A stretch of 64,000 nt of DNA from Candidatus Shapirobacteria bacterium. GTDB taxonomy: Bacteria; Patescibacteriota; Microgenomatia; UM-FILTER-40-11. Position 1 is the stretch's first letter, and each line of letters opens with the position of its first letter. Location: contig JAGVBK010000002.1 of assembly GCA_020059745.1 (NCBI GenBank), positions 104,301 through 168,300 of the forward strand, given 5' to 3'. The position numbers were made by a program, and so were the translations under genes. The notes under the pieces are model-generated. The model was not told where the DNA came from. It worked only from the letters and a program-made list of their open reading frames with translations, and made no database searches. Of the stretch, positions 7,256 through 53,015 are shown one piece after another.

Positions 7256-8062
7256 TTAATATTCGAAAACTTTTTTAAAAGAAGAAACCACTACCTTTCT
7301 GAATTGTGGCCTTATCTGATAAATATTCTTTAGATCATTAACTTTAATGGCAAACATTTCTTTGAAAGCTCTCAAAATATCCCTTACCAGGTTAACTTTA
7401 CTTGACTTACTTATATGTTTCCAAGTAACAGGCAGCTCGACAATTCTGTAATTAAGCTTGTTGCTGACATAAATTACTTCCGGATCCAGCCCCCATCTTT
7501 CTTGAGTCAATCTGGGAAAAACATCGCGACAGACTTGGTAAGAAAAAACCTTAAAGCCGCCGGTAAAATCAGCAATTTTAATTCCTAAAACAGTTTGGAG
7601 AATTTTACTGTGAACCGTGCCGATTATTTCCCTAACCATACTTCTTTTAACCAAGGAAATAGTTTGGGGAAGCTTTTTGCTGCCTACTAAAACTTCATAA
7701 CCTTTATGCATAAAGAGAGAAAATTCTTTAAGGTTTTCAAGAGGAATTGACATGTCGCCGTCTAAAAACATGCCAAAATCAGTATTTACCTCTTTTACTC
7801 CCTGCATGACCGCATATCCCCGGCCTTTGTTTAAGGGATAGGAAATAAGGAAAATTTCCGTTTGGTCAATAATATTTCCGGAGTACTGTCTTTGGAAATT
7901 TTTCAGTAAAGAAAGAGTTTTGTCTTTACTGCCGTCATCAACAAAAATAAGTTTTTCAATCTTAATGCTTTTTGGGCTTTTGTAATTGACAAGATAACCC
8001 AAAGTTTTTTTAAGCCTTTTTTCTTCATTATAGAGAGGGACAATGACAGTTAATGTTTTCAT
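7256..8062 (-). CDS. GT2 family glycosyltransferase (dolichyl/polyprenyl-phosphate sugar synthase-like)
   Basis: VIVPLYNEE...VDDGSKD...DGD motifs are typical of GT2 DPM/DPG synthases. Confidence 0.8.
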   Translation of the reverse strand: MKTLTVIVPLYNEEKRLKKTLGYLVNYKSPKSIKIEKLIFVDDGSKDKTLSLLKNFQRQYSGNIIDQTEIFLISYPLNKGRGYAVMQGVKEVNTDFGMFLDGDMSIPLENLKEFSLFMHKGYEVLVGSKKLPQTISLVKRSMVREIIGTVHSKILQTVLGIKIADFTGGFKVFSYQVCRDVFPRLTQERWGLDPEVIYVSNKLNYRIVELPVTWKHISKSSKVNLVRDILRAFKEMFAIKVNDLKNIYQIRPQFRKVVVSSFKKVFEY

Positions 8063-8063
8063 C

Positions 8064-8348
8064 TTAAAACCCCTTTTCTTTCATGCACCTTTGGTATGAG
8101 TCCCAATCAGGGACACGGGCGCTGCTGCCGCCCTCAGGGTTCTCATAAGTATTGACGCCCACTGTCATACACCCCTGAACAGCATTGTTTTTTATCATTC
8201 TTTCCGATTGCCTGTATCCCAAAACCACCGCTCCAATAAGGGCGGCGCCGATTAAGATAGTTCCGATATCTTTTCTCATTTTTTCACCGATAAAAGCATA
8301 AAATAAATTTTTATACTTTAGTCGATGCGTAACCCGAAGAGTGTTCAT
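8064..8348 (-). CDS. small membrane/secreted hypothetical protein
   Basis: 94-aa ORF. One TM helix (ILIGAALIGAVVLG). Real start is possibly the internal MRKD. GC content is intermediate, at the edge of the GC-rich island. Confidence 0.4.
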   Translation of the reverse strand: MNTLRVTHRLKYKNLFYAFIGEKMRKDIGTILIGAALIGAVVLGYRQSERMIKNNAVQGCMTVGVNTYENPEGGSSARVPDWDSYQRCMKEKGF

Positions 8349-8403
8349 TTACCTTATGAAGGTAAACTACTAACCCTCCGGGTTACGCGATCGGCATGCA
8401 ATG

Positions 8404-9549
8404 CTACTTGACAAGTCCCAGATACTGCTCCCGCCAGAATGTGGCTGCAATAGCCATTCCTTCCCACCCTACGGGAATTCTGGCTTTGGGATAGCTTGGG
8501 ATCAATATCAAGTTTGGGTCGGTCGGCACCTCCAGACGCTCTCCGTCGAACGGAAATTCGAACGGATTCCTGATGAAAAACGCGTCTTGGGGAGGTGCCT
8601 GCCAGTTGCCGTTGCCCAGATCGACGAGCCTGACACTCGGTGCAAGGCCGAATGTTGAGCGGATCCACGCTTCGTTCACCTGTGAAGGCGAAAAAGCGGG
8701 GGTCGCACTGGGAACGACGGGCGTTGGGGCAGCTAGCGGAACTGGTGTCTGAGTTGGCACAACTTGGGCTACCAAAGTAGCTGTCGGCTGTACCAAACTT
8801 GAGACCTGACCGATTTGACCAACTGAGGTCACAGGGATCACGCCAGTGATCCTGTGATACTCGTCAATACTGAAAGGCCTGAACGTGATCCCCTGTACAG
8901 GACCACACCAACCAGCAGGAATTCCTGACCCAACTGCTTCTGGGGGAAAACCCTCTTCTAGGGTCCTCCCGTGCAACTCCCGCTGTCTGCGGTCCGCCAT
9001 CCAGCCATCTTGCCGGAAAGGAGTGAAGTTACAAACCTCAATGGAAACAATATTCCCAAAGAGGTCTTTCTCCTCCGGCACCTTCCAGCTCCATGGCTCA
9101 CCCCTAGCCCTGCTAACCTCGCTGGGCTCAATGGACGGCTGAGCCTGTCTCCTTGTTGCAAGGATAACAAACTCATCCACTGACCTTGGCCAATCCTCCA
9201 TGACCTCAAGGCCTAGAACCCTGATGTCGTCCAGAGTCTGACCGCCAGTCAGAGTAAGCCCGAAAGCCTGAACCCTAGGTGACGGTGCCATTGCAACCGT
9301 CGGTTCGGATTGAACAGCCTCCTGACCGGGAGTCGGAGTCACAAGGACCTCAACAACCCGAGTCACTTCGACCGGAACCTCCTTCTCGACAACGACGGTC
9401 TCCTTGACCACCTGAGGGACGACCCTGGTGACCTCGACCGGGACCGTCTCCTTGACGATCTCGGGCGTTGGTGTCAGAGCACTTTCCCTGAGCGCACAAC
9501 CCGTGATCATCACGATAGCCACCATTACAACCAGGAATATCATCTTCAT
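8404..9549 (-). CDS. lipoprotein, hypothetical (GC-rich island)
   Basis: 381 aa. Signal peptide with lipobox-like ITGC. Tandem VKETVPVEVTRVV/KEVPVEVTRVVEV repeats and Pro/Thr-rich linkers. Region is about 57% GC. Confidence 0.6.
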   Translation of the reverse strand: MKMIFLVVMVAIVMITGCALRESALTPTPEIVKETVPVEVTRVVPQVVKETVVVEKEVPVEVTRVVEVLVTPTPGQEAVQSEPTVAMAPSPRVQAFGLTLTGGQTLDDIRVLGLEVMEDWPRSVDEFVILATRRQAQPSIEPSEVSRARGEPWSWKVPEEKDLFGNIVSIEVCNFTPFRQDGWMADRRQRELHGRTLEEGFPPEAVGSGIPAGWCGPVQGITFRPFSIDEYHRITGVIPVTSVGQIGQVSSLVQPTATLVAQVVPTQTPVPLAAPTPVVPSATPAFSPSQVNEAWIRSTFGLAPSVRLVDLGNGNWQAPPQDAFFIRNPFEFPFDGERLEVPTDPNLILIPSYPKARIPVGWEGMAIAATFWREQYLGLVK

Positions 9550-9559
9550 CTCAACCCTC

Positions 9560-10156
9560 CTAATCCCTCTGATGTCTCCGAAGAAACCCTGGAATGTCCA
9601 ACTCCGAACCGGGCGGATCCAGAGGATTTTCAGGCGTCTGCCTTTCCTCTTTCATCTCCGCCGCCCTGAAATTCAACCGTTCCAATTCCTCGATAAGCTC
9701 CTCCCTTTTCTCGTTCAGCTTCTTGATCTCATTTCTCGCCTGCTCGAGTTGAACTCTTTTTTCGCCAACGACACTAGTCAACTCTGCCACAGTCTTCTGT
9801 AGTTCGAGAACTTCTCCGTACAACTCATTTTTTCGACGCTGGCCTTCCTCAATCTTCTCGTCTGTTGTTGAGGCAACTTCCTCTTTCCTCCCTCTCACGT
9901 TCAAGATTATGGAAAGAACGAAAAGCAAAACCCCAACGACCAGGAGAATCCAGACCCAAGGCTCAAAAATCGCGAAAAAGTCGACGAGGACAAGCCCAAC
10001 AACAATATTTACCAGGCTCACCCCCAAAAACACAGTACCAACAATAAGTAAGACCAACACCAGGCGCTTCATGTCTTCTTCTCCTTTGCATGCCGATGTC
10101 AAAGAACTACTTTTGGCTCCTTCCAAGAACCGCAATTGGTCCTCTTTCTGGGCCAA
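9560..10156 (-). CDS. membrane protein with coiled-coil, hypothetical (GC-rich island)
   Basis: 198-aa ORF. The likely start is the internal MKRLV at about 10072. Two TM helices followed by a charged coiled-coil (EELIEELERL). Confidence 0.5.
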   Translation of the reverse strand: MAQKEDQLRFLEGAKSSSLTSACKGEEDMKRLVLVLLIVGTVFLGVSLVNIVVGLVLVDFFAIFEPWVWILLVVGVLLFVLSIILNVRGRKEEVASTTDEKIEEGQRRKNELYGEVLELQKTVAELTSVVGEKRVQLEQARNEIKKLNEKREELIEELERLNFRAAEMKEERQTPENPLDPPGSELDIPGFLRRHQRD

Positions 10157-10285
10157 AAGACCGATTTTTCAAAATCGGAATAATACCCACTATTAATGAA
10201 CATCTTTCCGACTTCAAAAGACAACCAGCCGGAGAGAGAAAGATACGCTTGCGCGTAAACAAACTCTCTCCGGCGAGATGCCATC

Positions 10286-11086
10286 CTACTCGAACCAAAC
10301 CACTGCGGTCCAGACCTTAACGTGCCCCGGCCCCTTGAATTTGTCTAGGTTTTCCCCAAGAATTGGGTTCCACCCGGTGACCAAGGCATTCTCGGGCACA
10401 GCGAGCATGACAGGGTTTCCACCACTGTTATAGTCAAAGCTGCACCCATCCTTCCGAAGGGCCCAGACACCACCAGTGACAACATTGGCTTGAAGCCAAT
10501 CGATGCTTGGGCAACCCTCGGGTTGGTCCGGAATCGGGAGCCTCGGCAAAGGCGGATTGAACACCACTGGGAGAAACAAAATACTTTCTCCAGGTGTCGG
10601 AACCACCGTTGGCTCGGCGGTTGCCATTGCAGTTGGTTCCGGCGTGGCGGTCGGCGTTGCCGTTACAGTTGGTACTGTAACCGTTGGCTCGGCCGTTGCC
10701 GTGGCGCTCTGTGGCTCAATCCACAGAACCCCGTCCCAAAATTCTCCCGAACCAGGTCCTTCCACCAGAAGGTCTTTTTGGCCCTCCGGCTCCGGCCGCG
10801 GATCCCAACCAGTCATCTTGGATCCACCCGCGGGGACAACGAGCAAGATCGGCTCCTCAAACGGGCCTCTTCCGCTCTCGAAAACAAAATCACAACCTTC
10901 GTCGGGCCCGACTTTCCACATCGAGAGTTCACCCCCGATGTTTTCCGCGACCCACTCGAGATCCGGGCACTCTTGCGGGGGTTCCGGAATGGCAACCTCC
11001 GCTGAGAGCTGGAACGGCAAAACTGCCGCCAGCGCGACCACAACCGCGAGTACAAGACTGCGCTTCATTTCCCCTCCTGGGATCAT
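10286..11086 (-). CDS. secreted protein with internally duplicated Cys-containing domain, hypothetical (GC-rich island)
   Basis: 266 aa. Signal peptide (likely start MKRSLVLAVVV). Two homologous domains (PQECPDLEWV...GCDF...TGWDP and PEGCPSIDWL...GCSF...TGWNP) separated by a T/P/A-rich linker. Confidence 0.6.
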   Translation of the reverse strand: MIPGGEMKRSLVLAVVVALAAVLPFQLSAEVAIPEPPQECPDLEWVAENIGGELSMWKVGPDEGCDFVFESGRGPFEEPILLVVPAGGSKMTGWDPRPEPEGQKDLLVEGPGSGEFWDGVLWIEPQSATATAEPTVTVPTVTATPTATPEPTAMATAEPTVVPTPGESILFLPVVFNPPLPRLPIPDQPEGCPSIDWLQANVVTGGVWALRKDGCSFDYNSGGNPVMLAVPENALVTGWNPILGENLDKFKGPGHVKVWTAVVWFE

Positions 11087-11216
11087 AAGGATGGCAAATA
11101 CTCAATGTGCTTCTGGTCTCACCAGCCAGATTGGCGCTTACGCCTTTCTAGTTATTGAAACCAGAAAAGGAAATTGAACTCCTAGTTTCCTTTCCCGGCT
11201 TCAACCGGAAACTTCT

Positions 11217-11894
11217 TTATTTTTTAAGACGAAGCAGCATGTATCCGGCAAGACCGGCAATTGAGGTTAAAGGGGCAACGAAAAGCAAACTAGAACCTGT
11301 GGCAGGAGTTTCACCTAAAACTTTTTTAACTTTGGTAACACAAACTTTAGAAGTGTCTTCTCTTTCTTCACCGCCGAATTTAGCCCTGACAGTGTTTTTG
11401 ACATCACAGTCAAAATCTTTATCACTCGGAGTGGAAACAACAACTGTTTCAATCTGTTTCTCTTCTGATTCGCCAGGTCCTAAATCTAAAATATCAAAAG
11501 TAAGGCTTCCTGACTCAAGCTTTAACTCAGCCGGAAGAAAGTCTGTAACAGTCACTTTTTCAAAAGTGCTGTTGCTGTTGTTAATGATTTTTATTCTGAA
11601 AATAACTTTTTCGCCAATGCTGAATTTATAGCCTTCAGGAGTAATGTCGGCTAAATTGTCTTCGAACCTTTTGTCAATCGGGCTCCAAACCTTTTTATCT
11701 AAAACAAGCTCTTCAACTTCGGTACAGACTTCGCCGCCGCCGTATAAAGATTCGCAACGGATTGCTCCAAAAGCATTTTTAGGAGAAATAATAAAAGCCG
11801 CAATAAATAAAATTGCGGTTAACAAAGCATGTTTCCTGTCCATTTTCATTTTTATTAAGGCTAAATAATAAAGACATGGCGTATTATAGGGCAT
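11217..11894 (-). CDS. cell-surface DUF11-like protein with C-terminal sortase sorting signal (paralog A)
   Basis: Likely start is MKMDRKH at about 11849. Signal peptide, Cys-rich N-terminus, DUF11-like beta domain (VTVTDFLPAEL). C-terminus is LGETPATG, then a hydrophobic stretch, then RLKK. Confidence 0.65.
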   Translation of the reverse strand: MPYNTPCLYYLALIKMKMDRKHALLTAILFIAAFIISPKNAFGAIRCESLYGGGEVCTEVEELVLDKKVWSPIDKRFEDNLADITPEGYKFSIGEKVIFRIKIINNSNSTFEKVTVTDFLPAELKLESGSLTFDILDLGPGESEEKQIETVVVSTPSDKDFDCDVKNTVRAKFGGEEREDTSKVCVTKVKKVLGETPATGSSLLFVAPLTSIAGLAGYMLLRLKK

Positions 11895-11974: not shown

Positions 11975-12730
11975 ATGGAAATAATTCTTTTTGATTCATC
12001 CTGGGAAAAGGAAAAAATAATACCGGTTGATATTCCGGTTCCTAAACCTGTGGAACCAAAAATTTCTTCTTCTTTCCCTTTCGCAAAATTTGCCAGAGGC
12101 CTTGCTTTGGGCTTAATCGGCATTTCTCTTTTTGTTTTTGGCGCAGCAGTTTTGCCAATAATCAAGCTGGAATTAAGCTACCGCCTTAATCCTAAAAATG
12201 AAGCTGAAGCAAGAGAATACTTTCCCAAAACTCCAAGTTATGAGGTTGCCTTAGAAAACAAAAAGCAGCTTGCCTCACAAGAAGCAGCCAAATACGGGGT
12301 TGATACAGATTTTTCTCTGGTCATCCCTAAAATTTCTGCTACCTCAAAAATCATTGCCAATGTGGACCCGGCAGACGAAAATAAATACAAAGCTGCTCTT
12401 AAAAATGGAGTTGCCCACGCCAGCGGCACCAAATTCCCTGGCAGCAAAGGCACTATTTATCTTTTTGCCCATTCCACCAACACTTTAGTTAATGTTTCCC
12501 GCTACAATGCTGTCTTTTATCTAGTTAAAGAGCTGGAACCCGGAGACCAGGTTATCATCTTTTTTGCCGGTCTAAAATATTCGTACCGGGTAACCGAAAA
12601 GGTCATCACTACTCCAGAAGATTTATCTTTGATAAAAGACAACCAATCAACTGAAAAGCTAATTCTTCAAACCTGTTGGCCGCCGGGAACAACCTTAAAA
12701 CGGCTCATGGTTGTAGCAGAAAGAATTTAA
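11975..12730 (+). CDS. sortase (paralog A)
   Basis: 251 aa. N-terminal membrane anchor, catalytic His in LFAHS, catalytic Cys in LILQTCWP (TLxTC-like), conserved Arg downstream. Divergently paired with its substrate gene. Confidence 0.8.
   Translation: MEIILFDSSWEKEKIIPVDIPVPKPVEPKISSSFPFAKFARGLALGLIGISLFVFGAAVLPIIKLELSYRLNPKNEAEAREYFPKTPSYEVALENKKQLASQEAAKYGVDTDFSLVIPKISATSKIIANVDPADENKYKAALKNGVAHASGTKFPGSKGTIYLFAHSTNTLVNVSRYNAVFYLVKELEPGDQVIIFFAGLKYSYRVTEKVITTPEDLSLIKDNQSTEKLILQTCWPPGTTLKRLMVVAERI
12281..12395. repeat. near-identical 115-bp tract shared by the two sortase paralogs (second copy at 13871-13985)
   Basis: gaagcagccaaatacggggttgatacagatttttctctggtcatccc... is about 98% identical between copies, while the flanking gene sequence has diverged. 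Further short identical tracts lie near the catalytic Cys codons (12650-12690 and 14250-14290). Confidence 0.8.
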
Positions 12731-12845
12731 CTTTCCATTTAAAAGTTCCCGAAATTAGTTTTCAAAGAGCTTAAATTGAAAATAATGGTTGGGGTTTAGA
12801 GCAGTTTTAGAAGCATGTAACAACATGGTAATAACTTTGTTAAAG

Positions 12846-13490
12846 CTATCTTCTTTTACCAAAGAAGACCAAGGCCAGACCCAAGAGTCCGTTTACTAAA
12901 GAAAGACCCAAAGTTGCTGGCATGGCACCGCTTCCGGTTTTCGGTAAAACCGTTGGTTTCCTCTCAACAACTTCTCGTCTGCTTACGCAAATTCTTGAGG
13001 TATCTTTATCCTCAATTCCGTCAGCTTTAACCGCTACTTCGTTAAAATCACAGATAACATCCTTATCTTTTGGAAATCTGCCTTCACTTACTACCCTTAC
13101 CCTGATATCCCTTTCCTCCACTTCATTGCGGTCAAAATCTGTAATATCAAAATCCAAATCTCCAGAAACAAACTCTAAAAATGAAGGAAGAGTATCTCTT
13201 ACCTCAACCCTGTCAAAGTCTCTTTCTCCTGTATTTTCCACCCTAATCCTGAAAACAACTTCATCCCCGGAAAAAAACTCATGGTCAGTAAAATCAAGGT
13301 TGTCAACAAAACGGCCGTCTCTTGGGTCCTGCACTTTTTTGTCAACATCAATTTCAATCGGCGGGCAAACATCATACTGAGGCTCACAAATATCAGAAGC
13401 AGCCGCATCTTTCCTCAAAACAAAAAAAAATGAAGCGGATAAAAAGATTAAGCCAAGTTTTCTTAATGTCATTTTGCTTACAATTTCCAT
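12846..13490 (-). CDS. cell-surface DUF11-like protein with LPKTG sorting signal (paralog B)
   Basis: C-terminal VLPKTGSGA, then a hydrophobic helix, then GKRR. N-terminal signal peptide (likely start MTLRKLG). DUF11-like domain (VEVRDTLPSFLEF). Confidence 0.75.
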   Translation of the reverse strand: MEIVSKMTLRKLGLIFLSASFFFVLRKDAAASDICEPQYDVCPPIEIDVDKKVQDPRDGRFVDNLDFTDHEFFSGDEVVFRIRVENTGERDFDRVEVRDTLPSFLEFVSGDLDFDITDFDRNEVEERDIRVRVVSEGRFPKDKDVICDFNEVAVKADGIEDKDTSRICVSRREVVERKPTVLPKTGSGAMPATLGLSLVNGLLGLALVFFGKRR

Positions 13491-13603
13491 TTCTATTTAT
13501 TATTCACAGGGTGCCAAATCGTGTCAAGCAGAAAGAAACATTTTTAGTTCAAATTTATTTTTTTAGCTTGAATTTCCTAGCTTTTTTTTAATATAAACAG
13601 AGT

Positions 13604-14320
13604 ATGGAAATAATTCTTTATGAGGCTAAAGATAAAAAAAGCCTTGTTTTAAAAGAGTTTACAAAACTTTCTTTCATAAACTCCAAAGCCGCAGCCGAAT
13701 ACCTGGGCTACAGCTTTCTTGCCGCCTCCTTAATGTTTCTATTGGTCGGCTTTGCCCCGATTATTAAAGAAGAAGCAAAATATCAACTAAAAAGACTTTT
13801 TACTTTCTCTGCTCCGGAGGCAAGCGTTGAAAGTGTTTTTTTTGAAAACTCAAAAAAAATTGTTGAAGAGGAAGCAGCCAAATACGGGGTTGATACAGAT
13901 TTTTCTCTGGTCATCCCCAAAATTTCTGCAACCTCAAAAATCATTGCCAATGTGGACCCGGCAGACGAAAATAAATACAAAGAACTTCTAAAAACCGGAG
14001 TGGCACACGCGACAGGCACAAAGTTTCCCGGAAACAATGGCACTATTTATCTTTTTGCCCATTCCACCAACAACCCGGAAAACATTGTCCGCTACAATGC
14101 GGTTTTTTACCTTTTAAAAGAACTTGAGCCTGAAGATGAAGTCATTGTTTTTTTTGCCGGCCAAAAATTTGTCTATAAAGTTACCAAAAACTTTATTGCC
14201 GAAGCCGGTGACCTAAAATGGCTCTCGGGAGATGAGAATGAAGAAAAGCTAATTCTTCAAACCTGTTGGCCGCCGGGGACAACTTTCAAACGGCTCATTG
14301 TTGAAGCTAAACCTTTATAA
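13604..14320 (+). CDS. sortase (paralog B)
   Basis: 238 aa. LFAHS and LILQTCWPPGT motifs. Shares near-identical DNA tracts of about 115 bp with paralog A. Confidence 0.8.
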   Translation: MEIILYEAKDKKSLVLKEFTKLSFINSKAAAEYLGYSFLAASLMFLLVGFAPIIKEEAKYQLKRLFTFSAPEASVESVFFENSKKIVEEEAAKYGVDTDFSLVIPKISATSKIIANVDPADENKYKELLKTGVAHATGTKFPGNNGTIYLFAHSTNNPENIVRYNAVFYLLKELEPEDEVIVFFAGQKFVYKVTKNFIAEAGDLKWLSGDENEEKLILQTCWPPGTTFKRLIVEAKPL

Positions 14321-14359
14321 AGGTCTTTCTTAAAGAAAGCTTCATTTTATGTTAAAATA

Positions 14360-16528
14360 TTGATGGACAGAAACCAAATGACTGGAGAAGAATTACCTTT
14401 CTCATTGATTGAGATCCGTTTACCTAAATCAAGCGAAAAAACCCCGGAAGCGGCGGCTCAGCTTTTTGCGGCCTTTTCCTCCCTTCCTAAAAAGTCTTTT
14501 TTGTCTTTTAAACCTCCAGTAAGCATTTGTTTTGAAATTGTTTGTGTTGACCAGGTCGTCCATTTTCTCATTTCCTGCCCTAAGGAAATGAAAGGTTATG
14601 TTGAAAGCCAGCTTTCTGCCCAATATCCGGAAAGCATCCTTCTGGAAATTCCCAAAGATTATCTTGCCGGCTACACCCAAAACTCAAACCCAAACCTGGG
14701 CCAGCTTACTTTATCAAACAGCTTTTATCTGCCTTTGCGAACCTATAAGGAAGTTAAAGACTCTGATCTTATTTCTTCTGTTTTGGGCGCTATGTCCAAA
14801 GCCGGGCCGGAAGATTTTATGGCTATCCAATTTATTATCGCCCAAGCCGGTAACTGGCAAGGCTATGCCCAGGGAATCATTGACAGAGGAATCCCCTCAG
14901 GAGAGGAAGGAAAAACTCTTCCCCACCCCCAGGCAAAACACATTGCTGAAAAAATAAGCAGCGGTGGCTTTTGGACCGCCATAAGAATCATTGCCAGTTC
15001 AGAAGAACTTCTAAGAAATATTTCCAATTCCTTTTCTTCCTACCAAAGCGATGTCAATGGCTTAAAACTTAAAAAAATAAGCCCGAGAAACAAAAAAAAG
15101 CTGCTTGAATCTTGTCTCAAAAGGTCTTTCGAAATGGCTCCTGCTAACCAGGTTCTTAACCTTGACGAGCTCGCTTCTCTTTGGCACCCTCCATCAAAGC
15201 ATTTGTCGGGCATTAAAAACATCATGTGGACACAAACCATTATGAGTGAGCCTCCCCTAAACCTGCCTACAGCAATCGACCTTAATGAAGCTGACAAAAA
15301 AGAAATCAATTTCATAGCCCGGACTGAGCATAAAAACAAGGTGGCAACCTTTGGCATTAAGAAAAAAGACCGTAGAAGGCATGTTTACATTATCGGGAAA
15401 AGCGGTACCGGAAAATCAACTTTAATTGCCAATATGGCCATAAACGACTTAAGGAACCGGGAAGGTCTGGCAGTTATTGATCCTCACGGCGATTTAACTG
15501 AAATTCTTTTGGATTATATTCCCTCTTTTAGGATAAACGAAACTTGCTATCTTGACCCGAGCGACACCGCCAACCCTTTTCATCTTAATCCCCTTGAGGT
15601 TAAAAACCCGGCCCATAGAGAACTTGTGGCCTCGAATATTGTCGCCATTTTTTATAAGCTCTACCACTATTCCTGGGGGCCAAGGCTTGAATACATTTTA
15701 AGAAATACAATCCTGACTTTACTGCAAACCCCGCAGCCAACACTTCTTCAGATTACGGAAATGCTTTCCAATAAAAACTTCAGGAAAAGAGTGGTTGATA
15801 ACCTCAATGACCCGGTCTTAAAAAGCTTCTGGGTTAATGAGTTTGAAAAAATGTCTGAAAAAATGATGAATGAAGCGGTTTCTCCGATTTTAAATAAAGT
15901 CGGCCAGTTTACTTCCTCTCCCACCATCAGACAAATTGTCGGCTCTTATCACTCAACAGTTGACCTTGAGGGTATCATGAATTCCGGCAAAGTTTTGCTT
16001 GTTAACCTTTCCCAAGGAAAAATTGGAGAAGACAATGCTGCGCTTTTAGGTGCCATGATTATTACCCAGCTTCAACTGGCGGCCATGAACAGGATTAATG
16101 TTGCTGAAGAACAAAGGAGAGATTTTTATCTTTATGTTGACGAGTTTCAAAACTTTGCCACCAGTGCCTTTGTTAAAATACTTTCTGAGGCAAGAAAATA
16201 CCGCTTAGACCTTTGTCTGGCAAATCAGTATGTCGGCCAGCTTGAAGAAGACCTGCAAAAAGCAATTTTCGGGAATGCGGGAACTTTAATTTCTTTTGTT
16301 GTCGGTGCCGGAGATGCAGGCTACATGGCCCAGGAATTCGGCCAGATTTATAAAGAAGAAGATTTAGTTAATCTGGGCATGTATCAGGTGGCAATGAAGC
16401 TTTGCATCGACAACTTAACATCTTCTCCGTTTTTGGCTACCACCATGCCTCTTCCAAGATGCAAAAACCAAAACAGGTCAAAAGTGCTTAAGGTCTCCAA
16501 GGAAAGACACACGGTCAAGCAAAAATAA
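14360..16528 (+). CDS. VirD4/TrwB/TraD-like P-loop ATPase (coupling-protein-like), no TM segments
   Basis: 722 aa. Walker A IIGKSGTGKST followed by VIDPHGD, as in TrwB/TraG. Walker B LYVDEFQNF. Arg/Gln sensor region EARKYRLDLCLANQ. N-terminal roughly 340-aa domain of unknown function. Confidence 0.65.
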   Translation: MMDRNQMTGEELPFSLIEIRLPKSSEKTPEAAAQLFAAFSSLPKKSFLSFKPPVSICFEIVCVDQVVHFLISCPKEMKGYVESQLSAQYPESILLEIPKDYLAGYTQNSNPNLGQLTLSNSFYLPLRTYKEVKDSDLISSVLGAMSKAGPEDFMAIQFIIAQAGNWQGYAQGIIDRGIPSGEEGKTLPHPQAKHIAEKISSGGFWTAIRIIASSEELLRNISNSFSSYQSDVNGLKLKKISPRNKKKLLESCLKRSFEMAPANQVLNLDELASLWHPPSKHLSGIKNIMWTQTIMSEPPLNLPTAIDLNEADKKEINFIARTEHKNKVATFGIKKKDRRRHVYIIGKSGTGKSTLIANMAINDLRNREGLAVIDPHGDLTEILLDYIPSFRINETCYLDPSDTANPFHLNPLEVKNPAHRELVASNIVAIFYKLYHYSWGPRLEYILRNTILTLLQTPQPTLLQITEMLSNKNFRKRVVDNLNDPVLKSFWVNEFEKMSEKMMNEAVSPILNKVGQFTSSPTIRQIVGSYHSTVDLEGIMNSGKVLLVNLSQGKIGEDNAALLGAMIITQLQLAAMNRINVAEEQRRDFYLYVDEFQNFATSAFVKILSEARKYRLDLCLANQYVGQLEEDLQKAIFGNAGTLISFVVGAGDAGYMAQEFGQIYKEEDLVNLGMYQVAMKLCIDNLTSSPFLATTMPLPRCKNQNRSKVLKVSKERHTVKQK

Positions 16529-18201: not shown

Positions 18202-18729
18202 ATGTACATCCGGGAGTTGCCCGCAGTTGGAGAGCTAGCAAAAGTGCAGGCTCAAATCGTCCGGTATGTTCTGCTCACGATTTTTTTCGGATCTCTCCTT
18301 TTTCTCTCTGCCGCTCTTTTCGGCTCCGACATTGTTTGGAGCTGGGATGGCTTTGATCCCTTCTTGGGAGAAAGAGCCATCGAGGGCCTGGCAATCTCAT
18401 TTCTTACCTCTGGGCTGGAAATGCTCAGGGGCATATTGGTTGCAGGAGAAGTAGTAAAAAGGAAATCGCCCGAGTACTACCTTTTGTGCATCCTTGAAGC
18501 AGTTGCCTATGTAGTTGATATCATTACCAACTACTTGGGCATATCTGTACGGCGAGGAGAGTCGGCCTGGGGCTGGACGAGCGACAATGCTGTCGCCACT
18601 ATAGTCAAGGCAGGACTGGCCATCGTCGTCAGCTTCATGGAAATGTTTGTGTTCTGGTTTGCTGAGGCAACGGCTGTTTGCTCGAAATCTCTACAGGCTG
18701 CTGTAGAAACAAAAAAGCAACTGTCCTAG
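18202..18729 (+). CDS. hypothetical membrane protein (GC-rich islet)
   Basis: 175 aa with 3-4 TM helices. About 52% GC. Upstream promoter-like TTGACA-N17-ATAAAT at 18126-18154. Stem-loop at 18741-18780. Confidence 0.5.
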   Translation: MYIRELPAVGELAKVQAQIVRYVLLTIFFGSLLFLSAALFGSDIVWSWDGFDPFLGERAIEGLAISFLTSGLEMLRGILVAGEVVKRKSPEYYLLCILEAVAYVVDIITNYLGISVRRGESAWGWTSDNAVATIVKAGLAIVVSFMEMFVFWFAEATAVCSKSLQAAVETKKQLS

Positions 18730-30901: not shown

Positions 30902-31789
30902 TTAATCTAGTTCTTCAAGTATATCCTCAACCCGTGTAACCAATTTGGCTCCCTTTTTAATTAAGCTCGCTGTTCCTTCAGACAAAGGAGAATTTACCGG
31001 TCCCGGCACGGCAAAAACTTCTCTTCCCTGTTCTGCTGCCAAAGAAGCGGTAATTAAAGACCCTGAATCAAGGGCTGCTTCTGTAACCAAAACTCCCCGG
31101 CAAAGCCCGCTAATTATTCTGTTTCTGGCGGGAAAGTTTGCCGGTGAAAGCTTTGTCCCAAAAGGAAACTCCGACAAAATTGCCCCTTTGTTTTTAACAA
31201 TTCTTTCTGCAAGCAATTTGTGCTCAGGCGGATAAACCCGGTCAAGCCCGCTGCCGATAACTGCAACGGTAATTCCACTGTTCTCGAGAGCTACCTCGTG
31301 GGCCACTCGGTCAACCCCGCGCGCCAATCCCGAAACAATCACCCAATTTTTTAAAACAAGTTCTTTAACAAGAGCCCGGGTTACCCTGTCGCCATAAGGG
31401 GTCATTTTCCTGCTGCCGACAACAGCTATCGTTTTCTTTCTAAAAATTTCCTTCAGGCTGGTTCTCTCTGACAATTTTACATATAAAACTGACGGTGCTG
31501 AATCAATTTCTTTTAACAAATCTGGGTAATTTTCTTCTCCGCTGAAAACTGCTTTTACCCCTTCATCGGAAAACCGAACAAAATCCGAACCAAAGTTATA
31601 TTTTTTCCTGAAGATTAAAAATTTATCGACTGTTTTTTGCGGCAAACCTATTTCTCTTAACTGTCTTTCTCCGGCATTAAAGGCTTTCTCTGCAGAACCA
31701 AAATAGTCTAAAAGAAGCTTAAAACGGACCGGGCCAATGCCCTCAAAAAGCGAAAAAGCAAGCCAGTATTTTTTTTCCCCTTCTTCCAT
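30902..31789 (-). CDS. dprA: DNA processing protein DprA (Smf)
   Basis: Rossmann-like VVGSRKxTPYG...VSGLARGVD...AVIGSGLDxVYP motifs. Confidence 0.85.
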   Translation of the reverse strand: MEEGEKKYWLAFSLFEGIGPVRFKLLLDYFGSAEKAFNAGERQLREIGLPQKTVDKFLIFRKKYNFGSDFVRFSDEGVKAVFSGEENYPDLLKEIDSAPSVLYVKLSERTSLKEIFRKKTIAVVGSRKMTPYGDRVTRALVKELVLKNWVIVSGLARGVDRVAHEVALENSGITVAVIGSGLDRVYPPEHKLLAERIVKNKGAILSEFPFGTKLSPANFPARNRIISGLCRGVLVTEAALDSGSLITASLAAEQGREVFAVPGPVNSPLSEGTASLIKKGAKLVTRVEDILEELD

Positions 31790-41229: not shown

Positions 41230-41303
41230 GCCCTTCTAGCTCAACGGCAGAGCGACGGTTTTGTAAACCGTTGATCAGGGTTCAATTCCCTGGAAGGGCT
41301 CCA
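41230..41303 (+). tRNA. tRNA-Thr (anticodon TGT)
   Basis: Cloverleaf: acceptor GCCCTTC/GAAGGGC, anticodon loop TTTGTAA, T-loop TTCAATT, encoded CCA. Confidence 0.85.
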
Positions 41304-51686: not shown

Positions 51687-51799
51687 GTGGAAAAACTACA
51701 AAAATTGTAATTGCTTGACAAGCGGTTGTAGAATACATCTATAGAAAAAAGCTAAAAAGAGGCTAAAGCGCTTCTTAACAGCTTATTTTTTGTTCTTTG

Positions 51800-52617
51800 A
51801 AAAGGGAGACAGAGTTGAAGACCGAAAGGCGAAGGCACAAAACCTTCGGCTTTCGGTCTTCAGCATTCAAGATAGCCAAAAATGGCAGAAAGGAGAACTT
51901 GGCTACGGATTAGTCGATCCGCCTTACTCACCCCCAGGAGAAAAAAGTGAGAGTAGTTACGGTCGGTTCGGCAAAGGTAGTTCCAACTATCGGGGAAGAG
52001 ATGTTCCCAATGGTCGGCTTCGGACTGGGAGTCCAAACGTCAATGGGAGGCTGTTTCGGACTTAGGTCTGACCACGATGAGTCGGTTCTTGTCTGGAACA
52101 GCCAAAAGAAGCTTCCCGAGCTGCTTGAAGAAGCAGGTATTCCCTTCGTGCAGACGGGGAAAGAGTTCACAACTACTGTTCCCGGCTGCAGGGAGACTGT
52201 AATCAAATCTGGAGAAAGATTGTCTTGGAGCTTCCCGATGCCCACCCTGACAAGCGGACACCCAAAGTTCGCATTCCTTCCCCAACCCCGGTTCGCACGC
52301 ATTGGAGAAGGAAGAAGACAATACTACCTGATCAAGCTTCTCGGCGCACTGGTCGGCACCCAAGAGGCCATTGTATGCCTCGAGTTCGGACAGTTCAGCT
52401 CAAGTTACAAGAACTTGTGCTACAAGTTCGAGCTCAAGGGGGTGGTGGCAATCGGACCAAAAGAACATCTTTTCTGGCAGTTTGAACTACCCCCAGAAGA
52501 AAGCTTTGATTCTCTTCTCAAGAGAATCAAGCTTTACTAGATCCTGGCTCGCGTGCCAATTTTCCCCCAGCCTTGCGGCACGCGAGCCTTCCGTTTGGCA
52601 CTCTCTGTCTCCCTTTT
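51800..52617. mobile_element. 818-bp GC-rich element bounded by perfect 15-bp terminal inverted repeats (candidate non-autonomous mobile element)
   Basis: Left end AAAAGGGAGACAGAG (51800-51814) and right end CTCTGTCTCCCTTTT (52603-52617) are exact reverse complements. Subterminal 13-bp and 12-bp stem hairpins sit at 51816-51860 and 52546-52588. About 52% GC, against roughly 37% in the flanks. Confidence 0.5.
51947..52540 (+). CDS. hypothetical protein encoded inside the TIR element
   Basis: 197 aa with a GTG start and AGGAGA RBS 6 nt upstream. No TM and no recognisable transposase or nuclease motif. Confidence 0.45.
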   Translation: MRVVTVGSAKVVPTIGEEMFPMVGFGLGVQTSMGGCFGLRSDHDESVLVWNSQKKLPELLEEAGIPFVQTGKEFTTTVPGCRETVIKSGERLSWSFPMPTLTSGHPKFAFLPQPRFARIGEGRRQYYLIKLLGALVGTQEAIVCLEFGQFSSSYKNLCYKFELKGVVAIGPKEHLFWQFELPPEESFDSLLKRIKLY

Positions 52618-52799
52618 GTAATTCTTCTATTTTCTTTCTCTTTTTTTTACTATAAAAACATCAATATATTTCAAAATGTCTAAAAGTATTTCACCCCTTT
52701 TATATCCTATTGACAACTTTTTAACTACTGTGATACTCTTTTGATTAGAAAAACATATTCTAAAGTTTAGTATTTTGAATTTCTCCCGAAAGGAGCTAT

Positions 52800-53015
52800 A
52801 TGCCTGATAAAAAGAATCTTAACCTGGATAATCTTCCCGACTTGCTTACTGTCCGCGAGGTAGCTGAAATTCTAAGAGTTTCTCCCCTAACCATTAAAAG
52901 ATGGGGCAAAAGAGGCAAGCTGCCGGCAATCAGAATCAATTCCAGAGGCGACAGAAGGTATAAAAAAGAAGCGGTCCTTTGGATGCTAGGTATTCAACCG
53001 AAAGACCAAATCTAA
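52800..53015 (+). CDS. helix-turn-helix DNA-binding protein (excisionase/MerR-like HTH_17)
   Basis: 71 aa. LLTVREVAEILRVSPLTIKRWGKRGKLPAIRI is a classic Xis/MerR-type HTH. Confidence 0.6.
   Translation: MPDKKNLNLDNLPDLLTVREVAEILRVSPLTIKRWGKRGKLPAIRINSRGDRRYKKEAVLWMLGIQPKDQI

Follow-up and report, generated by a model that had tools for sequence, protein, structure and literature searches.

We analyzed a 64,000-nt stretch of the genome of a Candidatus Shapirobacteria bacterium (GenBank assembly GCA_020059745.1, contig JAGVBK010000002.1, positions 104,301 to 168,300 of the forward strand), called the window below, and concentrated on a GC-rich island at positions 8375 to 11145 that holds three minus-strand genes, A, B, and C. 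We put at roughly 0.68 the probability that this island is a hypervariable cell-surface locus of the replacement type in a Microgenomates (Patescibacteria) lineage. Replacement is argued for by near-identical flanks that carry strongly divergent alleles, by mosaic tracts, and by substitutions that rise toward the border. The features to which the text refers are as follows (positions in the window).

8375-11145, no strand: GC-rich island, limits from maximum-likelihood segmentation
11217-11894, minus: left flank, gene for a CLIPPER/DUF11 sortase substrate, host GC, 83-89% identical in relatives
11087-11216, minus: IG1, spacer between CLIPPER and C, 86-92% identical in relatives, GC 0.45, long hairpin at 11155-11204
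10286-11068, minus: gene C, signal peptide and two homologous two-Cys domains joined by a Thr/Pro linker (about 10553-10705), GC 0.58, GC at third codon positions (GC3) 0.61
10073-10285, minus: IG2, spacer between C and B, 82-86% identical in relatives, three hairpins, among them 10228-10274 and a terminator-like one at 10161-10178
10086-10097, minus: left arm of the inverted repeat around B and A, ATCGGCATGCAA on the sense strand, just 5' of the ribosome-binding site of B; alleles diverge right after it
9560-10072, minus: gene B, hairpin of two transmembrane (TM) helices followed by a coiled coil, GC3 0.57
8404-9549, minus: gene A, lipoprotein with lipobox ITGC, a Val/Glu/Thr-rich tether, and a Pro/Thr linker, GC3 0.59
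8390-8401, minus: right arm of the inverted repeat, TTGCATGCCGAT, 2 nt past the stop codon of A; conservation resumes there
8280-8403, minus: IG3, spacer after A, 90% identical in the related locus L006, hairpin at 8327-8388
8064-8279, minus: gene for a small conserved membrane protein, lying between the GT2 gene and the island; 71 aa when counted from Met24 in a 94-aa open reading frame (ORF), two Cys
7256-8062, minus: right flank, gene for a family-2 glycosyltransferase (GT2), host GC, 84% identical in L006

Alleles of the island in related lineages

A maximum-likelihood segmentation of the window with two breakpoints delimited the island at 8375-11145, with a GC content of 0.543 against 0.405 in the rest (41.1% in the window as a whole). 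Windows of 2.75 kb taken outside the island had a mean GC content of 0.407 (sd, 0.017) and a maximum of 0.453. The island pointed out in an earlier, sequence-only reading of this DNA is thus real, and its borders (8.37 and 11.09 kb) had been placed well; the contrast of 57% versus 37% given there was too extreme, the measured values being 54% and 40.5%. The jump of about 14 points is abrupt, and all three codon positions are raised in the island genes, whose GC3 is 0.57-0.61 versus 0.385 ± 0.046 in 60 other ORFs.

The order of genes at the window site (CLIPPER, C, B, A, the small-protein gene, GT2, and GT1) was matched by the contigs of seven relatives. L003, L004, and L005 contain the run sortase, CLIPPER, sortase, CLIPPER, C; L013 contains CLIPPER, C, B, A; L019 contains a complete B-A unit; L006 contains B, A, the small-protein gene, GT2, GT1; and L020, which comes from another project and is 95.5% identical, spans the right junction, reaching from B to the small gene downstream. 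In all the syntenic relatives the GC content climbs from 0.33-0.40 to 0.55-0.60 where the island genes begin, and no relative with an empty site was found among those recovered. The presence of homologs of matching GC at the same site in at least four related Microgenomates lineages went against a recent import from a high-GC donor and is a result that the sequence-only reading had itself named as counting against foreign DNA.

Within the island, the coding parts turned out to be the least conserved DNA and the spacers the most conserved. Nucleotide identity between the window and its relatives was 0.86-0.92 in IG1, 0.82-0.86 in IG2, and 0.90 in IG3, with 0.70-0.87 in the flanking coding sequence and only 0.58-0.62 in C, 0.54-0.56 in A, and 0.45 in B. 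At the protein level, the flanking orthologs were 64-89% identical, with a synonymous divergence (dS) of 0.5-2.3 (mostly saturated), a ratio of nonsynonymous to synonymous divergence (dN/dS) of 0.05-0.23, and a GC3 of 0.26-0.39; the island orthologs were 31-59% identical, with saturated dS, a dN/dS of 0.13-0.32, and a GC3 of 0.58-0.64. This dN/dS range, obtained from the comparison of orthologs, shows the island genes to be real and under purifying selection, evolving faster than their neighbors.

Pairwise comparisons revealed how the alleles are distributed over the flanks. L003 and L013 share 98-100% identity along about 1.1 kb covering the sortase gene and the 5' half of CLIPPER, 0.80-0.93 in the 3' half of CLIPPER, and 0.92-0.98 in IG1, and they then carry C alleles with about 50% protein identity. 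L004 and L005 hardly differ over 2776 nt (99.93% identity) and continue, right after ATCGGCATGCA, into two different B alleles; this breakpoint falls exactly at the 12-nt left arm of the inverted repeat around B and A, in front of B. L005 overlaps L006 perfectly, and the allele of L004 is that of L019. The window itself shares with L013 a tract of 97-100% identity that covers IG1 and the first ~130 nt of C, while the identity is 83% in CLIPPER and about 45% in the rest of C. In all, four alleles of C (50-65% mutual identity) and four of the B-A unit (B of 111-170 aa, A 40-69% identical) are known. The window allele and other alleles were found in sequencing runs with neighboring SRR accession numbers, which probably represent one sequencing project. 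The earlier proposal of lateral transfer thus stood insofar as this DNA is laterally exchanged, by allele replacement among close relatives, while a high-GC donor gained no support.

The coding parts would then be old, strongly divergent alleles that are present at one site in every related lineage and swap between near-identical genomes through homologous recombination. Such recombination would be anchored in the flanking genes, in the signal-peptide end of C, and in the three ultra-conserved structured spacers, and it would need no integrase. DprA is encoded in the window (30902-31789) and makes DNA uptake by transformation plausible. The diversity of alleles would probably be driven by phages or by the host cells to which epibionts attach.

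Beyond these close relatives, A and C had very few homologs among 5.8 billion clustered proteins. A HMMER search of 1.84 billion representatives with a profile of C gave only three further genuine relatives (P0009 to P0011), one of them with the two-domain-plus-linker architecture of C, and a profile search with A led to P0020 to P0023. The contigs fetched for the remote homologs P0009 to P0011 and P0023 showed that their genes adjoin GT1, GT2, a giant membrane protein, or sortase genes. All of these genes lie 0.1-0.2 in GC above their own background, and P0023 is encoded in a genome of about 33% GC in the order TM protein, A-like lipoprotein, small protein, GT2, GT1. The search for homologs, which had been recommended along with a look at the taxonomy of the best hits, placed all those whose contigs were fetched in Patescibacteria-type neighborhoods and gave none outside in either protein collection. 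In a metagenome-assembled genome (MAG) of a Candidatus Microgenomates bacterium, the island proteins are deposited as C4578_02315 and C4578_02330, both annotated as hypothetical.

Scans of metagenome contigs gave no match with the C profile and only three loci with the CLIPPER profile, and a scan of genome contigs gave one locus, labeled Clostridia, whose gene content is of the Patescibacteria type. The contig of locus L007 (DATKVU010000108.1) is deposited as part of a Clostridia bacterium MAG; it carries a Microgenomates-like set of genes (sortase/CLIPPER pairs, giant membrane proteins, GT2), its GC profile cannot be told apart from the profile of the JGI contig L010 across the 16.7 kb they share, and it is probably mis-binned or mislabeled. 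In L007/L010 and in L009, with a sortase about 48% identical, GC-rich units of a small TM protein plus a lipoprotein directly follow CLIPPER genes. Apart from the tether motif, the lipoprotein units of L007 and L009 have no detectable homology to A. L011 and L021 also contain analogous units.

Gene products, spacers, and bracketing repeats

The protein encoded by C has 260 aa counted from MKRS (the open frame extends to 11086). Its two domains are homologous (33% identity; E = 6e-12), and structure prediction modeled each as a helix plus a seven-strand beta-sandwich. B has 170 aa counted from the ATG behind AAGGAG (the open frame extends to 10156) and, by the positive-inside rule, is probably membrane anchored with a cytoplasmic coiled coil rather than secreted. 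A is a lipoprotein of 381 aa whose lipobox Cys is invariant across all alleles. The tandem VxVEVTRVV repeats noticed earlier in the lipoprotein were found in the form of two copies of VPVEVTRVV in its tether (DNA repeat 9353-9390/9419-9456). The model of A has two confident globular domains (residues 104-237 and 288-378) and a disordered Val/Glu/Thr tether. ORF and domain analysis thus largely agreed with the earlier description of three minus-strand genes for a lipoprotein, a two-TM coiled-coil protein, and a two-domain secreted protein; as to their being secreted or membrane proteins, the signals of A and C were found, and B is the one that is probably anchored and not secreted.

Neither A nor C matched a family in Pfam, NCBIfam, PHROGs, or PADLOC or any known fold, and no relatives of either were found in IMG/VR. 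We considered whether A might be related to C, which a profile-profile comparison showed not to be the case. The matches of B were all sub-threshold and driven by the coiled coil and the TM segments (Phage_holin_3_6, 25.1 bits against a cutoff of 28.4; LysB, E = 0.003; phrog_312, E = 0.006). A phage lysis cassette of a holin, an Rz-like spanin, and a lipoprotein was rejected on account of these sub-threshold matches and the core-chromosome context. A target of a diversity-generating retroelement was likewise rejected, as the window holds no template repeat and no second copy of the island, and the gene tables of the neighborhood list no reverse transcriptase.

In the window allele, the C terminus of B (9560-9610, minus strand) ends in ...LDIPGFLRR (...ELDIPGFLRRHQRD) and resembles the C-terminal peptide of FtsZ. 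FtsZ carries a conserved C-terminal peptide. The tail is missing from the three other alleles of B, and the resemblance is probably due to chance.

The gap between B and A is 10 nt, and B is translationally coupled to A. Three features suggest that the lipoprotein has its membrane partner in B or in an analogous small TM protein: this short gap or overlap, the joint variation of B and A, and the fact that distant lineages, too, pair a TM protein with a lipoprotein. An envelope location was predicted from the signal peptide, the lipobox, the TM helices, and the sortase and glycosyltransferase context. Judging from the site of the genes, between the sortase/CLIPPER module and the glycosyltransferases, and from the turnover of alleles, A, B, and C would most likely be exposed envelope components that are diversified by phages or host cells.

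The surroundings of the island were as described earlier, with the sortase module on one side (CLIPPER/sortase) and the glycosylation cluster on the other (GT2). The sortase/CLIPPER module (11975-14320) is a tandem duplication in which the two sortase genes share 441 nt at 77.8% identity. It is adjoined by a gene for a TrwB/VirD4-like ATPase (14363-16528), an arrangement also kept in relatives. Sortases are near-ubiquitous in Microgenomates (PMC6744442). The claim that an integrase and a flanking tRNA are lacking was also borne out: no integrase or recombinase Pfam family appeared in the gene tables of the 20-kb neighborhood or in 20 further ORFs of the window, and the nearest tRNA lies at 41230, some 30 kb off. 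No flanking direct repeat longer than 20 nt was found around the island, where only AT-rich matches at chance level turned up.

The small membrane protein on the right is kept in the distant locus L021, there with a host-like GC3. Comparison with L021 suggests that its real start is Met24 (8279). The first ATG of the 94-aa ORF, as annotated, lies inside the very stable hairpin after A (within 8310-8410, minus strand), so a start at Met24 would make this hairpin intergenic.

The spacers have a host-like GC content (0.38-0.47), so that the GC richness is confined to the coding parts. Compared with shuffled sequences, the spacer after CLIPPER folds with a dG of -26.3 (z = -3.3), the one after C with -37.8 (z = -4.1), and the one after A with -43.2 (z = -7.4), and a sliding folding scan gave z values of -3 to -10 for the spacers. 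Three hairpins make up the consensus fold of IG2, and their many G-U pairs on the sense strand point to a putative RNA element there. A search against Rfam 15 gave no match above the gathering threshold in the island, only a chance-level match of 19.6 bits at E values up to 1, and none in seven related loci either. A long perfect inverted repeat had been reported after each gene. We found strong hairpins after C and A, the latter imperfect (16 nt, 88%), and none after B; the example cited, a 10-bp stem at 10207-10251, is in fact a perfect 11-bp repeat at 10228-10238/10264-10274.

In L021, a 600-nt noncoding stretch (1384-1989) rich in short hairpins, several with GNRA-like loops and without a match in Rfam, sits between the gene for the A-like lipoprotein and the small-protein gene, where the window has its 124-nt IG3.

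The B-A unit of the window is bracketed by a perfect 12-nt inverted repeat, both arms of which are conserved in all alleles (on the IG2 side the sequence runs ...GTTCTTTGACATCGGCATGCAA; the 3' end of A, taken as its reverse complement, runs ATGCTACTTGACAAGTCC...). Brackets of differing sequence were found in three lineages, being 13 nt and perfect in L007 and 22 nt at 82% with a perfect 12-nt core in L009; compared with shuffled sequences, p was about 0.001 for the 12 nt of the window, <0.0005 for the 13 nt of L007, and about 0.001 for L009. A strong local hairpin lies 3' of the right arm in all three. A bracket around C (TGCCATCCT/AGGATGGCA, 9 nt, overlapping the stop codon) was dropped, as it was not significant against shuffles. 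Directly 5' of the left arm stands the motif AGTTCTTTGA(C/A) (window 10073-10110, L004 5880-5950, L007 10790-10812), which is common to the clade of the window and the distant L007 despite their differing brackets; L009 has CCTTGAA there.

The conserved hairpins and the 5'/3' bracket would act on the mRNA, in termination, processing, or stabilization. It is a tentative and rather unlikely idea that GC- and G3-rich coding units, ultra-conserved structured spacers, and a lineage-specific bracket of 12-13 nt together make up an undescribed cassette architecture of Patescibacteria. The units could be whole-gene invertible (phase-variable) surface modules, or their mRNAs could be built for extreme stability by means of a 5'/3' panhandle, flanking hairpins, and U-to-G recoding. 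Were the latter true, the compositional island would stem from selection at the RNA level and not from a foreign origin.

Composition and competing explanations

We then determined what makes up the GC excess. About half of it lies at third codon positions, and the rest comes from protein composition, the island proteins being rich in Pro, Val, Thr, Glu, Gly, and Trp and poor in Lys, Asn, Tyr, and Ile (island versus host genes: Pro, 10.0 versus 4.2%; Val, 12.7 versus 6.5%; Trp, 2.6 versus 1.2%; Lys, 3.2 versus 9.0%; Tyr, 0.6 versus 3.7%). At four-fold degenerate sites, G rises from 0.15 in host genes to 0.30 in the island and T falls from 0.40 to 0.28, with A and C unchanged. This T-to-G shift recurred, irrespective of background GC, in each of the eight lineages that could be compared with their host genes, and the bias in protein composition likewise returned in every lineage examined. 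The signature of a donor genome is expected to raise synonymous C as well. The unchanged C, set against this expectation, and the host-like spacers argue that the composition is maintained in place. The GC excess would accordingly be kept as a property of the genes and not be a fading donor signature. Candidate causes of the G enrichment would be selection for G-rich, stably folded mRNA and GC-biased repair at a recombination hot spot. The minimum free energy of island coding sequence per 120 nt is about -43 versus -23 kcal/mol.

In L009, two paralogs (10666-11646 and 13662-14561) share a C-terminal domain, one having a GC content of 0.52-0.60 and the other 0.46-0.48; four-fold G is 0.32 in the TM-protein-plus-lipoprotein unit of the GC-rich paralog and 0.24 in the intermediate one. 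This pair could serve for the study of how composition evolves. A second GC-rich gene of the window (18202-18729, plus strand; GC, 0.50; GC3, 0.55) encodes a 175-aa multi-TM protein without a match in Pfam or PHROGs, and its four-fold sites are C-rich, not G-rich as in the island genes. A further stretch of some 820 nt with about 52% GC (51780-52600, plus strand) comes right after rplL and a terminator, behind a TTGACA...TAGAAT-like promoter. It folds with a dG of -326.8 (z = -9.1 against shuffles), has no match in Rfam, and contains an ORF (51947-52540) without the G3 signature of the island; we regard it as a candidate large structured noncoding RNA. A small excisionase/MerR-like helix-turn-helix ORF follows it at about 52799-53011.

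An origin other than replacement among native alleles would be an ancient acquisition from a GC-rich source by an ancestor of the Microgenomates group, with slow amelioration and later shuffling of alleles, so that the GC excess is a remnant. Our calculation with a simple F81-type model leaves room for it within the close clade: the four-fold divergence of the flanks (p of about 0.45-0.6) merely halves a compositional deviation, and a donor GC3 of about 0.85 could still leave 0.6 today. The GC3 excess is also lower in distant homologs (0.43 versus 0.35 in L011; 0.41 versus 0.25 in L018), as decay predicts. Yet the T-to-G signature persists in lineages whose sortases are only ~48% identical, a donor-type enrichment of C is absent, and no source lineage was detectable, and we consider such an acquisition unlikely.

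The bracket raises another possibility, namely, that the B-A unit is a phase-variable invertible segment of 1.7 kb, served by a recombinase encoded elsewhere and acting as an on/off switch of the lipoprotein pair, which may accompany allele replacement. In three deep lineages, units of a TM protein and a lipoprotein are indeed enclosed by repeats of 12-13 nt, whose arms are placed immediately beyond the ribosome-binding site and the stop codon, and the contigs of several relatives end close to them. However, all junction-spanning contigs show one orientation, no recombinase gene was found at the locus or among the scanned ORFs of the window, and a 5'/3' panhandle formed by the repeats in the mRNA would be an alternative. 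Inversion thus appears to us a rather improbable explanation.

Far less credible is a recent, one-off import of a 3-kb block, unameliorated, from a high-GC donor outside the Patescibacteria (e.g., Chloroflexota or Actinomycetota). The abrupt jump in GC at all codon positions would fit it, as would the accessory surface functions encoded at the locus and the resemblance of the tether motif to the unrelated substrate-binding lipoprotein P0004 of unknown origin. Against it stand the orthologs at the same site and with the same GC in at least four related lineages, among which the dS of the flanks is mostly saturated; the confinement of all detected homologs to Patescibacteria-type contexts; the internal spacers, with their host GC and a conservation higher than that of the flanks; and the rise of synonymous G alone, without C.

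It is very hard to maintain that the genes are integron-like cassettes without an integrase (CALIN) and the hairpins their attC sites. There are imperfect palindromes after genes, and the hairpin after A contains GCGTAAC...GTTACGC, one mismatch from the R''/R' consensus of attC, RYYYAAC/GTTRRRY; the hairpin after C, in contrast, has no attC-like core, no IntI gene is present, the gene order is fixed in all lineages, it is the hairpins that are conserved and the genes that vary, and the genes have their own ribosome-binding sites and are separated by long, structured spacers. An assembly chimera of a Microgenomates contig with DNA of a GC-rich organism, the other option of the sequence-only reading, has nothing beyond the compositional jump in its favor and can practically be dismissed, since contigs of separate assemblies of different samples (JGI 3300007351 and 3300007354) show 100% identity to the window along 19.5 and 20.8 kb and span both junctions, related, non-identical assemblies from other projects cross the left (L003, L004, L005, and L013) and the right junction (L006 and L019), and the internal spacers are conserved and host-like.

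Several observations weigh against a replacement-type surface locus as we propose it. The RNA structures are nearly without support from covariation among the 4-5 alleles (for IG2, with four sequences, there is one covarying pair). As a candidate cause of the GC and G3 excess, mRNA folding in excess of that predicted from composition is modest (mean z of -1.5 to -1.7 versus -0.4 to -0.6 in the flanks) and not clearly strand specific. Known replacement islands are usually below the genome in GC, and this one is above it. Surface exposure is a prediction from the signal peptide and lipobox, and the relatives are all short metagenomic contigs, some of them Logan contigs that are possibly strain mosaics.

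Comparison with known systems and implications

Replacement flexible genomic islands carry genes for exposed structures, undergo exchange through homologous recombination, and show a raised density of substitutions at their borders (Lopez-Perez, Martin-Cuadrado and Rodriguez-Valera 2014, PMC4033161); examples are the O-chain or glycotype islands and the cell-wall island of Haloquadratum (PMC4535781). The locus described here resembles them in occupying one chromosomal site in all strains, in its predicted exposed envelope products, in its atypical composition, and in lacking mobility genes. Near-identical clonal frames with very different versions, and substitutions that rise toward the border, are further points of likeness. 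It differs from them in being far smaller (2.8 kb, three genes), in that its versions are divergent alleles of three shared protein families and not different gene sets, and in the conserved structured spacers that split it into separately exchangeable units. Our literature searches were non-exhaustive, and within them this is the first replacement island in Patescibacteria that we are aware of.

The pneumococcal cps locus, which lies between dexB and aliA, is an allelic surface locus exchanged through conserved flanks. As in loci of that type, highly divergent alleles of old age persist in the population and pass from one background to another when conserved flanks recombine; here, however, they are alleles of proteins and not biosynthetic clusters, and the anchors are short noncoding RNA-like elements and a signal-peptide segment. 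With invertons the island shares inverted repeats of 12-13 nt that bracket a unit next to expression signals, whereas no recombinase lies nearby, a single orientation was seen, and the bracketed unit is not a promoter but a whole two-gene unit of 1.3-1.7 kb. The likeness to integrase-mediated islands consists in the compositional anomaly and the accessory surface genes; unlike them, the island has no integrase, tRNA target, or flanking direct repeats, and the locus is present in all relatives.

The best explanation of this locus is a small replacement-type island with three unusual traits, namely, structured spacers, bracketing repeats, and persistently G-rich coding sequence. Compositional islands are routinely taken as signs of recent transfer or of binning or assembly error, and tools that clean MAGs may remove them. 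Here, the GC-rich island is stable and present throughout the lineage of an ultra-small episymbiont, and it is also the most variable coding DNA of the region. The lipoprotein, its membrane partner, and the secreted two-domain protein probably mediate or evade interactions with hosts or phages, and A, B, and C are candidates for studies of host recognition in Microgenomates, a group without cultured members. The lasting enrichment of synonymous G, together with spacers more conserved than neighboring housekeeping-type genes, raises the question of what maintains local composition in reduced genomes.

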